A DNA stretch of 10,435 nucleotides from IMG/VR virus record IMGVR_UViG_2671180556_000023, positions 1-10,435 of that record, one strand, 5' to 3'. The stretch comes from a virus. Lineage: Duplodnaviria; Heunggongvirae; Uroviricota; Caudoviricetes. Positions 7,024-8,484 of this stretch are shown in pieces. Position 1 is the first letter of the stretch. Each line of letters begins with the position of its first letter. The notes under the pieces are model-generated. The model did not search any database and was not told the origin of the DNA. It was given only the letters and a program-made list of their open reading frames with translations. A program made the translations under genes and the position numbers.

Positions 7024-8484
7024 CTACTCTTTTTTAAGTGTTTGCAGTAAAGTTAGAATATCTTTATATTTTTTTTCATTAAAATGAAAGCCATAGGGTT
7101 CAAAAGATTTTAGATAATTTAAATACCCTCTTAGTTTGTTAATCGTTAATTGACTGTTATCCTGTTCTTTAAGAGCATGATCAAATGCTGAGCGAATTTT
7201 CTTTCTGTAAGTTCTAGTTGGCCTTACCGCCTCATTAACGAGAATCCCAGTGACAACTTGACGGCTATTATATGAAGATATTCGCTTTTTTTCTTTATTT
7301 AATTTAAATCCATGTGATAGTAATTTATCCTCAGCAATACTTATAAGTATCTCTAAGTTTTCTTTTTTATCACTACTGATGGATATATCATCAGAGTAAC
7401 GAGTATATATACTATCAAGAGTTAAGGCTTGGAAACTCATTTCTTCGTCAAATTCGAAAAGTACTGCATTTGATATTATAGGGCTTGTAGGTGCACCTTG
7501 TGGAAGTACATCATTATATGTAACTATACCAGAGATAGTGTTGATAACATGCTCCGGTATGTTATTTTTATAAAAACAATCCTTGACCATCTTTTTATTA
7601 ATCGAACCAAAGTAATCCGAAATATCTATATTTGCGACAAACTTTTTTCTTACATGATTAATTGCATTATCTTTTATACTTACACCACTTCTGTATGAAT
7701 AACAGGAAGAGTGTATTTTTAAACGGTTTAACAGATGATCTTTTAACCAATACTGTAAGGTTTTAATGAATTTCCGGGGAGCAAGGATGGGTCTAAAACC
7801 ACCGGATTTTTTTTGTAAATTAAATGTGCGATAGTATCTTTGGGGAGATTTTATCATTGCAGTTATCAACCCTGGAGATATGCCAATACAAGAGGCAATA
7901 GCAGTTACTCCATCACTATTAAAAAAAACTTCGTCGAGTTTATTAAATGAATAGTAATTTAAAGAAAAACCTAATCGGCCAATAGAGTGGTGTGGCGAGC
8001 TTTTCGTTGTGGGTGGTGTGCTGGCCTCATTACTGGACATCGAACCAATATTTAATTGCTCGTAGATCCGCACCCAAGCCTGTCTTGGGTGCGGAACCTC
8101 TTTTGAATTGTGCCTTAACTGTAAAGACGGCGAACCACCGCCCATATTCTCTGTATCAGTTGAGGCCAGCACTCTTAATTTACTAGCAGAGTGGCAGTTG
8201 TCAAGCATAAATAGTCTAATTTTATCACGAAGCTTTTTCAGCGATGGAGTTAGTCGTTCATTTCCTTTAGGCGTTAACGAATAAAGGTTGTTACGCTTCG
8301 ATACTTGATGTATATATCCATGTTGATCAAGTAATTCAAAATAATGAATCATTTTCTCAACTTCAGGTAATAAACCATTATCATTTAAAGTAGATGCAAG
8401 GTAATTTAAAACCTCATTTGGAGATGCGAGCTGAATAACGGATAGCCCCCAAACAATTAATTTATAATTAGTAGATTCTTCCAT
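7024..8484 (-). CDS. Retron-type reverse transcriptase in a 486-aa ORF with an N-terminal winged-helix-like extension; RT proper probably begins at Met149 (ATG 8040), giving 338 aa
   Basis: RT motifs in the C-terminal part: QKKSGGFRPI (res 225-233), retron-type NAxxH (NAINH, 273-277), NIDISDYFGS, LPQGAPTSP, YxDD as YSDD (363-366), retron-type VTG (411-413). Residues 1-100 look like a PadR-like wHTH (GYIHQV...YSLTPKGNERL). Residues 105-156 are encoded by a GC-rich structured element (see ncRNA feature). Confidence 0.85.
   Translation of the reverse strand: MEESTNYKLIVWGLSVIQLASPNEVLNYLASTLNDNGLLPEVEKMIHYFELLDQHGYIHQVSKRNNLYSLTPKGNERLTPSLKKLRDKIRLFMLDNCHSASKLRVLASTDTENMGGGSPSLQLRHNSKEVPHPRQAWVRIYEQLNIGSMSSNEASTPPTTKSSPHHSIGRLGFSLNYYSFNKLDEVFFNSDGVTAIASCIGISPGLITAMIKSPQRYYRTFNLQKKSGGFRPILAPRKFIKTLQYWLKDHLLNRLKIHSSCYSYRSGVSIKDNAINHVRKKFVANIDISDYFGSINKKMVKDCFYKNNIPEHVINTISGIVTYNDVLPQGAPTSPIISNAVLFEFDEEMSFQALTLDSIYTRYSDDISISSDKKENLEILISIAEDKLLSHGFKLNKEKKRISSYNSRQVVTGILVNEAVRPTRTYRKKIRSAFDHALKEQDNSQLTINKLRGYLNYLKSFEPYGFHFNEKKYKDILTLLQTLKKE
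8018..8172 (-). ncRNA. Candidate retron msr-msd ncRNA embedded in the RT ORF
   Basis: Perfect 12-bp inverted repeat GTGCTGGCCTCA (8018-8029) / TGAGGCCAGCAC (8161-8172) flanks about 130 nt, like retron a1/a2 repeats. Inside is a perfect 12-bp stem hairpin (8067-8078 pairs with 8084-8095, 5-nt loop). The segment is GC-rich within an AT-rich cassette, and the in-frame ATG at 8040 would start a canonical-length RT. Confidence 0.45.

Follow-up and report, generated by a model that had tools for sequence, protein, structure and literature searches.

A winged-helix domain probably translated in fusion with a retron reverse transcriptase through an embedded msr-msd gene in a P4-like satellite

Organization of the locus

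Positions 1 to 10,435 of the IMG/VR virus record IMGVR_UViG_2671180556_000023 (hereafter the window, meaning the whole 10,435-nt stretch analysed) carry on the minus strand a 486-residue open reading frame (ORF) in which an N-terminal winged helix-turn-helix (wHTH) domain is joined through a linker to a retron reverse transcriptase (RT). The best explanation of the locus is that a type II-A2 retron occupies the hotspot between psu and int in a P4-like satellite, and comparison with homologous loci makes it probable that the ORF is a true wHTH-RT fusion, translated straight through an msr-msd RNA gene embedded in the linker codons. The features of the ORF are as follows.

7024-8484, minus strand: wHTH-linker-RT ORF, 486 aa, type II-A2 retron RT (ORF list, PADLOC, NCBIfam)
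8176-8484, minus strand: N-terminal PadR-like winged-helix domain, aa 1-103, with a long C-terminal helix (AlphaFold2)
8177-8204, minus strand: sigma-70-like promoter match, TTGACA-16 nt-TAAATT, within the final wHTH codons, its end 4 nt short of a1 (consensus scan)
8018-8172, minus strand: predicted retron non-coding RNA (ncRNA) gene, msr-msd, codons 105-156, 155 nt (inverted repeats, fold, covariation, covariance model)
8161-8172, minus strand: a1 inverted repeat, GTGCTGGCCTCA, a perfect 12-nt pair with a2
8125-8143, minus strand: msr hairpin, 8 bp, GGGCGGTG-GTT-CGCCGTCT, coding for G-G-G-S-P-S (RNAalifold helix 1)
8067-8095, minus strand: msd hairpin, 12 bp with a 5-nt loop in this copy, coding for VPHPRQAWVRI (inverted repeats, RNAalifold helix 2)
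8065-8068, minus strand: GATC at the 3' base of the msd stem (sequence), common to about half of the aligned homologues
8038-8040, minus strand: ATG of Met149, a possible internal start, present in 7/8 enteric-clade loci and absent from all other clades
8018-8029, minus strand: a2 inverted repeat, TGAGGCCAGCAC, a perfect 12-nt pair with a1
7027-7962, minus strand: RT domain, aa ~175-486 (Pfam RVT_1 at aa 224-404; AlphaFold2 confidence >90 from aa ~180)

The ORF matches the PADLOC profile RT_II-A (PDLC02940) from end to end (1.1e-200, aa 1-484 against profile positions 1-476 of 477), and the Prokaryotic Genome Annotation Pipeline (PGAP) calls a single 486-aa coding sequence (CDS) at an identical RefSeq locus in a complete genome (NZ_CP148357, 100% identity). 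Within the ORF, NCBIfam retron_St85_RT matches aa 196-473 and solved retron RTs align to aa 193-463. The translation carries the motifs that mark a retron RT, NAINH (N273-H277, region X), YSDD (363-366) and VTG (411-413, region Y), each invariant or nearly so across the homologue alignments; regions X (NAxxH) and Y (VTG) are used here as the main text of PMC7736814 defines them.

Residues 1-103 are, on structure prediction, a real folded domain. AlphaFold2 models built from 38-86 homologues give a predicted local distance difference test (pLDDT) score of 91 for the wHTH alone and 82-96 inside the full-length model, with helices at residues 7-17, 22-33 and 42-54, followed by a beta-hairpin (58-70) that forms the wing and by a long helix (80-108). 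At conserved wHTH residues the mean third-position entropy is 1.46 bits versus 1.30 in the RT, and synonymous codons are varied (six codons for Ser69, four for Pro19); such free synonymous third positions argue that the segment is translated and selected at the protein level. In structural comparison the domain matches PadR and MarR repressors best, the dimerisation-type C-terminal helix included. No Pfam family exceeded threshold (best DEP, E=0.013, and HTH_45, E=0.07), there was no match to PadR (Pfam PF03551) at E <= 0.1, and the wHTH profile returned nothing above noise from PDB sequences. An earlier note, made from the window alone, had taken residues 1-100 of the ORF (8484-7024, minus strand) for a real PadR-like domain from the motifs GYIHQV and YSLTPKGNERL, which do lie at aa 56-78; the structure prediction and the free synonymous codons bear out the domain, and "PadR-like" holds for the fold but not for family membership, because no Pfam family reaches threshold.

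An msr-msd gene within the linker codons

By comparative sequence evidence, linker codons 105-156 double as a retron msr-msd gene lying against the RT domain, complete with terminal a1/a2 repeats, a short msr hairpin, and a long msd hairpin. Specifically, i) the 155-nt segment folds as RNA at -71.2 kcal/mol (z = -7.0), and its GC content is 0.45-0.51 versus 0.25-0.37 in the flanks; ii) perfect a1/a2 pairs of 10-20 nt recur at matching codon positions in nearly every homologous locus (a1 near codons 100-107, a2 ending near 160-174), and the repeats themselves are unrelated in sequence between clades (GTGCTGGCCTCA, TAAGGGTGCTTCTG, TTGAGGGGTCTCCTGAG, GTGTCGGGGGAT, ATGTCAGGGGAGC, TCACGCGAGGT, and others); iii) the central msd hairpin of homologous loci measures 18-31 bp per locus; and iv) the paired positions covary. 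For the last of these, RNAalifold applied to an alignment of 31 sequences yields an 8-bp msr hairpin and a 22-bp msd hairpin in which 96.2% of cells are paired, a share that drops to 35-44% if the partners are shifted by 1-3 columns; compensatory changes occur in 24/30 pairs, and none of 500 shuffles reached the observed covariation. Helix 1 (msr, alignment columns 37-55) is paired in 99% of cells with compensatory changes in 5/8 pairs, and helix 2 (msd) in 95% with 19/22. RNAalifold did not recover the a1/a2 pairing from the 31-sequence alignment because MAFFT misaligns the variable ends, and that pairing is therefore documented locus by locus.

A covariance model built from the same alignment (model R1) has one match in the window, at 8014-8171, and also detects the element in eleven family loci that had been left out of the model. 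A search of Rfam with the msr-msd segment gave no match at the gathering threshold or at E <= 10. A second ncRNA upstream of the NDT-like effector gene, the type II-A1 layout, was considered and rejected, model R1 finding a single copy in the window.

The peptide encoded by this RNA gene is predicted to be disordered: AlphaFold2 gives a pLDDT below 50 at aa 104-133 and 148-171, two stretches that essentially make up that peptide. Some linker codons are frozen (TCG for Ser118 in 23/27 sequences, CCA for one Pro in 28/28), and the conserved linker residues G116, S118, P119, W137, and Q143 coincide with conserved or paired nucleotides; in the wHTH and the RT, third positions vary freely at conserved residues. 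On this codon evidence the linker is constrained at the RNA level, not at the protein level.

The sigma-70-like sequence just before a1 scores at least 10/12 in 8/8 enteric-clade loci despite differing spacers, and several other clades have TTGCTA-17 nt-TAGAAT or TAAAAT at the same distance from a1. Across loci, 37% score at least 9/12 at the promoter position, versus 1.3% of the other positions in the same ORFs. We lean towards 8204-8177 being a functional internal promoter.

Translation through the RNA gene

The ORF is matched over 95-100% of its length by more than 100 homologues, 476-515 aa long and as little as 30% identical, which come from gamma-, beta-, delta-, and alphaproteobacteria. 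We retrieved 48 metagenome loci through two peptide motifs inside the wHTH, a sample that is blind to sequence downstream of the wHTH because nothing else was used for retrieval, and added two viral and two genomic loci; a scan of genome contigs with the full-length alignment found mostly generic retron RTs, with only loci L002 and L003 belonging to the family. From the wHTH to the YxDD motif of the RT, 37 of the 48 metagenome loci are uninterrupted, 8 leave the contig with the frame still open, and 3 are interrupted: L096 by a linker stop (at 2.5x coverage), L118 also by a linker stop, and L115 by a stop inside the RT. These three are probably decayed copies or assembly errors. L118 is also a deletion variant whose ncRNA is about 44 nt shorter.

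Between a1 and a2, 33 distinct sequences from clades that differ almost completely in sequence contain one stop codon in the ORF frame and 86 and 125 in the +1 and +2 frames; the ORF frame is open throughout in 32/33 and the other two frames never are, whereas a shuffled a1-to-a2 segment would be open with a mean probability of 0.056. In 13 of 30 loci, a search that began 20 codons ahead of the a2 end and ran up to the first RT motif found no in-frame ATG, GTG, or TTG. Other internal start candidates are not conserved, and a Shine-Dalgarno-like match precedes three GTG codons only. The open frame and the missing internal starts together imply that in most members the RT can be made only from the wHTH ATG, by translation through the RNA gene. 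No Shine-Dalgarno sequence was found upstream of Met149, which is confined to the enteric clade, so that initiation there cannot be the general mode; within that clade Met149 may yield a minor short isoform.

The earlier note had offered two readings, a wHTH-RT fusion translated through a structured element, or a wHTH protein and an RT begun at Met149 and expressed separately by a mechanism not visible in the sequence. Its description of Met149 (ATG 8040-8038, with the repeat, a2 at 8029-8018, adjoining and no Shine-Dalgarno) agrees with ours, and its proposed survey of homologous loci for a linker stop or frameshift favors the fusion (37/48 in frame, 3 interrupted, 8 cut by contig ends; frame open in 32/33; no start in 13/30), while separate expression from Met149 as a general mode falls with the restriction of that codon to one clade. 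The sequencing error that might have undone the fusion is excluded by the identical CDS in NZ_CP148357 and by the many full-length homologues. The note saw the structured element without recognizing a complete msr-msd gene, and saw the fusion without recognizing what the main text of PMC7736814 gives as a hallmark of type II-A2 retrons; as for a mechanism, it is partly visible, in the form of a candidate sigma-70-like promoter before a1.

Split relatives

A hidden Markov model (HMM) of the wHTH finds stand-alone wHTH ORFs of 98-104 aa directly upstream of retron RTs in three loci that had surfaced in the genome-contig scan made with the full-length alignment.

L004, Terriglobia metagenome-assembled genome, 2340-3906
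L005, Salipiger thiooxidans, 2366-4086
L034, Pararhizobium mangrovi, 2380-3870

All three have the order NDT, stand-alone wHTH, a gap of 171-227 nt, and RT; the wHTHs match the HMM at E 1e-9 to 4e-8, and the RT domains are about 30-37% identical to that of the window. The gap folds as a canonical ncRNA in L004 (z = -12.4) and L005 (z = -9.3), and the intergenic ncRNA of L004, which model R1 detects, shares its msr hairpin motif with the window family. Both L004 and L005 place the RT start codon within a2, and in L005 the wHTH stop codon falls a few nucleotides before a1. The split and fused loci thus share one gene order, and differ in that the wHTH of the split loci ends in a stop and their ncRNA is intergenic, so that the fused family can be described as the same arrangement minus the stop and restart, with the frame kept. 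In a further locus, L011, the wHTH (HMM E 3e-5) is fused to NDT.

The satellite and the state of this copy

The whole window is a P4-like satellite by gene content and Rfam RNAs. The remaining features are these.

1-2343, minus strand: alpha primase (window ORF list)
3794-4079, minus strand: C4 antisense RNA, isrK, and c4-a1b1 target, a P4/P1-type immunity RNA region (Rfam matches)
6980-6999, minus strand: terminator-like GC-rich hairpin and T run, 25 nt past the RT stop codon
8578-9195, minus strand: NDT-like effector gene, frameshift-truncated (PADLOC NDT_II-A)
8634-8639, minus strand: T6 run, site of a 1-nt deletion (T7 in NZ_CP148357; alignment)
9149-9340, minus strand: 63-aa ORF with a single transmembrane (TM) segment, overlapping the NDT start, unannotated in RefSeq, with a weak PADLOC PDC-M43A match
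9350-10435, minus strand: integrase (window ORF list)

The Rfam matches to C4, isrK, and c4-a1b1 confirm the P4-like backbone, and homologues of psu and delta are annotated in the identical RefSeq locus. The interval between int and psu is a known P4 defence hotspot (PMC9122126); here it holds, on the minus strand and in this order, the 63-aa ORF, the NDT-like ORF, and the 486-aa ORF, the last two of which PADLOC assigns to a type II-A retron. From membership in that family and from the psu-int position (PMC9122126) we infer a role in anti-phage defence. The hairpin and T run at 6980-6999 are likely to be the terminator of the retron operon. The 63-aa ORF recurs upstream of NDT in 14 loci at 36-100% identity (tblastn), and its product may be a fourth component of the retron.

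In the window the NDT-like gene has lost 1 nt and encodes 205 aa with an altered tail instead of 236, a change seen in the window only, the locus being otherwise 100% identical to NZ_CP148357; it may be either a real inactivating mutation or a homopolymer sequencing error. The PADLOC NDT_II-A match is accordingly 5e-59 over profile positions 1-155 of 199 in the window and 1.3e-75 over positions 1-198 of 199 for the intact RefSeq allele, which would end at 8486, 1 nt before the RT ATG. The NDT partners in relatives are 224-236 aa long, and a homologue search with NDT found close relatives only, of 198-256 aa. The msd stem has also been cut, to 12 bp against 22-31 bp in relatives, by a 39-nt in-frame deletion (junction 8084|8083) that removes 13 residues relative to homologue P0001 together with the distal part of the stem, is flanked by CCCAAG direct repeats (as read from the stem of locus L084), and is common to NZ_CP148357 and metagenome locus L085; it should leave the ORF open and give a much shorter multicopy single-stranded DNA (msDNA). 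Finally, codon 19 (8428-8430) reads Leu in place of a Pro that is at least 90% conserved, in the VIQPA motif with which the second wHTH helix opens (P19L).

A model and its alternatives

We suggest that the locus would give rise to two transcripts. Ribosomes starting at the ATG at 8484 on the upstream operon mRNA would read across the whole RNA gene and produce a wHTH-RT of about 56 kDa, and the internal promoter would produce a second, shorter transcript beginning at a1, as in canonical retrons. Since the a1-start transcript has no conserved start codon or ribosome-binding site, it could fold undisturbed as an ncRNA and, untranslated, would both prime and template msDNA synthesis. Held to the RT by a flexible linker, the wHTH would replace the DNA-binding lobe carried by the effectors of types II-A1 and II-A3 and would help to hold the msDNA, the NDT toxin, or both in an inactive complex; the toxin could then be set free when a phage modifies the msDNA, the GATC at the stem base being one conceivable site. 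In the retron Ec86 the effector contacts both RT and msDNA (cited in PMC12746101), and GATC in the RT-DNA is a proposed methylation trigger in other II-A retrons (PMC12548924). That the wHTH acts on msDNA or effector, and not as a transcription factor, seems to us nearly an even matter.

Taken together, a stretch of about 190 nt (155 nt here) may serve both as a disordered tether and as a template and primer RNA gene, each separately selected, with a promoter just upstream and with RT translation unwinding its own template in an RT-coupled feedback; we put this forward tentatively, at a little under an even chance. If true, ribosomes could make the RT only by unwinding the RNA that is later to be its template, and the RT mRNA would itself be cleaved once it had been reverse transcribed and attacked by RNase H; translation and msDNA synthesis would thereby be intrinsically coupled, or linked by negative feedback, in a way undescribed for retrons.

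Several points weigh against this picture, or temper it. Transcript ends, protein size, and msDNA are predictions from the sequence. The promoter is identified by its match to the consensus; that match is strong in the enteric clade and in some other clades only, 17/30 loci scoring below 8/12, and the -35 element overlaps conserved LL(K/D) codons, so that its conservation is possibly in part protein-driven. The loci are phylogenetically related, and the stop-codon and in-frame counts therefore overstate the number of independent events. The wHTH resembles the C-termini of II-A1 effectors at sub-threshold level only (E 0.002-0.02), namely positions 184-268 of 277 of NCBIfam STM3845_fam at E 0.002-0.007 in 4/31 members and positions 223-267 of 272 of PADLOC PDLC02930 at E 0.02. 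With its NDT frameshift, msd deletion, and P19L, moreover, the window copy may be decaying and possibly non-functional.

Three other explanations deserve to be weighed against a translated fusion whose wHTH serves the msDNA or the effector. The two domains could be separate products, a small wHTH regulator and an RT begun at Met149 on the internal-promoter transcript, with the open frame functionless: the promoter is conserved in the very clade in which 7/8 loci have an ATG just upstream of a2, exactly this split layout exists in L004, L005, and L034 (with the RT start inside a2 in the first two), and one NCBI cluster (P0032) is annotated as a 345-aa product beginning within the linker. This would leave unexplained, however, why the wHTH and RT share a frame from locus to locus and why stops all but vanish from that frame while accumulating in the two others, and it offers no candidate start to 13 of 30 loci and, at Met149, a start with no Shine-Dalgarno sequence; we regard it as improbable. 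An artefact, whether a sequencing or assembly error hiding a stop or frameshift or a frame open by chance, has in its favor that a homopolymer indel does separate the window from the RefSeq genome at another place, the NDT gene, but the complete RefSeq genome has the identical 486-aa CDS, the same architecture recurs across hundreds of independent assemblies, and chance would leave the frame open in only about 0.056 of cases per sequence, so that we give this explanation practically no weight.

The third accepts the fusion and differs over the function of the wHTH, which would be a PadR-type autorepressor of the operon or of the internal promoter instead of a module binding msDNA or effector. 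Its structural matches to PadR and MarR repressors, dimerisation-type helix included, and the position of the promoter within the wHTH's own coding region would suit such a role; on the other side, according to the main text of PMC7736814 types II, III, and IX carry an equivalent winged helix on the effector or as a retron-specific accessory protein, the Ec86 effector contacts both msDNA and RT as noted above (PMC12746101), and no operator-like palindrome was noticed here, though no search was aimed at one. We think autorepression unlikely, and we retain as probable a translated wHTH-RT fusion with an embedded msr-msd gene. The join would then be a selected, translated fusion and not an accident of annotation, and the "non-coding" msr-msd of type II-A2 would in fact be coding.

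Comparison with known retrons

On its sequence features the locus belongs to the already catalogued type II-A2, and no feature contradicts the assignment: like that type it has an NDT-like effector devoid of a DNA-binding domain, an RT of the St85/II-A clade with a full-length HMM match at 1e-200, and PADLOC matches to RT_II-A (PDLC02940) and NDT_II-A (PDLC02929), and both the NDT-like effector and the wHTH at the RT N-terminus are present. Mestre et al. 2020 describe in their main text (PMC7736814) a II-A2 DNA-binding domain apparently fused to the RT N-terminus. The fusion itself is thus already known, and the under-described property would be a coding msr-msd with an embedded promoter: the main text of that paper does not state an ORF-embedded ncRNA, a conserved frame, or a promoter in wHTH codons, the retron census and environmental-retron papers make no mention of an ORF-embedded ncRNA, and we found no experimental characterization of any II-A2 retron in searchable literature text. 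An RNA embedded in this way would be missed by retron finders limited to intergenic DNA upstream of the RT start, and re-engineering the msd of a II-A2 retron as an editing donor would have either to keep the reading frame or to re-split the genes as in the sister lineages.

The type II-A1 retrons Retron-Sen2 (St85) and Retron-Eco3 (Ec73) have an RT of the same family (retron_St85_RT) and likewise combine an NDT-like toxin with a winged helix, but there it is the effector that carries the winged helix, as its C-terminal lobe. In St85 and Ec73 the ncRNA is non-coding and lies upstream of the effector gene, and the RT, of about 310-320 aa, has its own start. Ec73 is itself carried by a P4-like retronphage, phiR73 (Inouye 1991, as cited in PMC9122126). 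Retron-Eco11 (type III-A3, PMC12746101) comes close in another way, its ncRNA being wedged between the RT and an effector whose last domain is a winged helix, with the effector stop codon within the a1/a2 repeats, where a figure legend also marks the RT start (PMC12746101); it differs in that the overlap is at the edges only, the proteins are two and separate, and the effector is a PRTase rather than NDT. PadR regulators (PDB 1xma, 9qbd, and 5x11) are only 11-16% identical to the wHTH, which has no Pfam PadR match and is covalently fused to a polymerase. The split and fused lineages together amount to a natural experiment on why a winged helix moves between effector, stand-alone protein, and RT.

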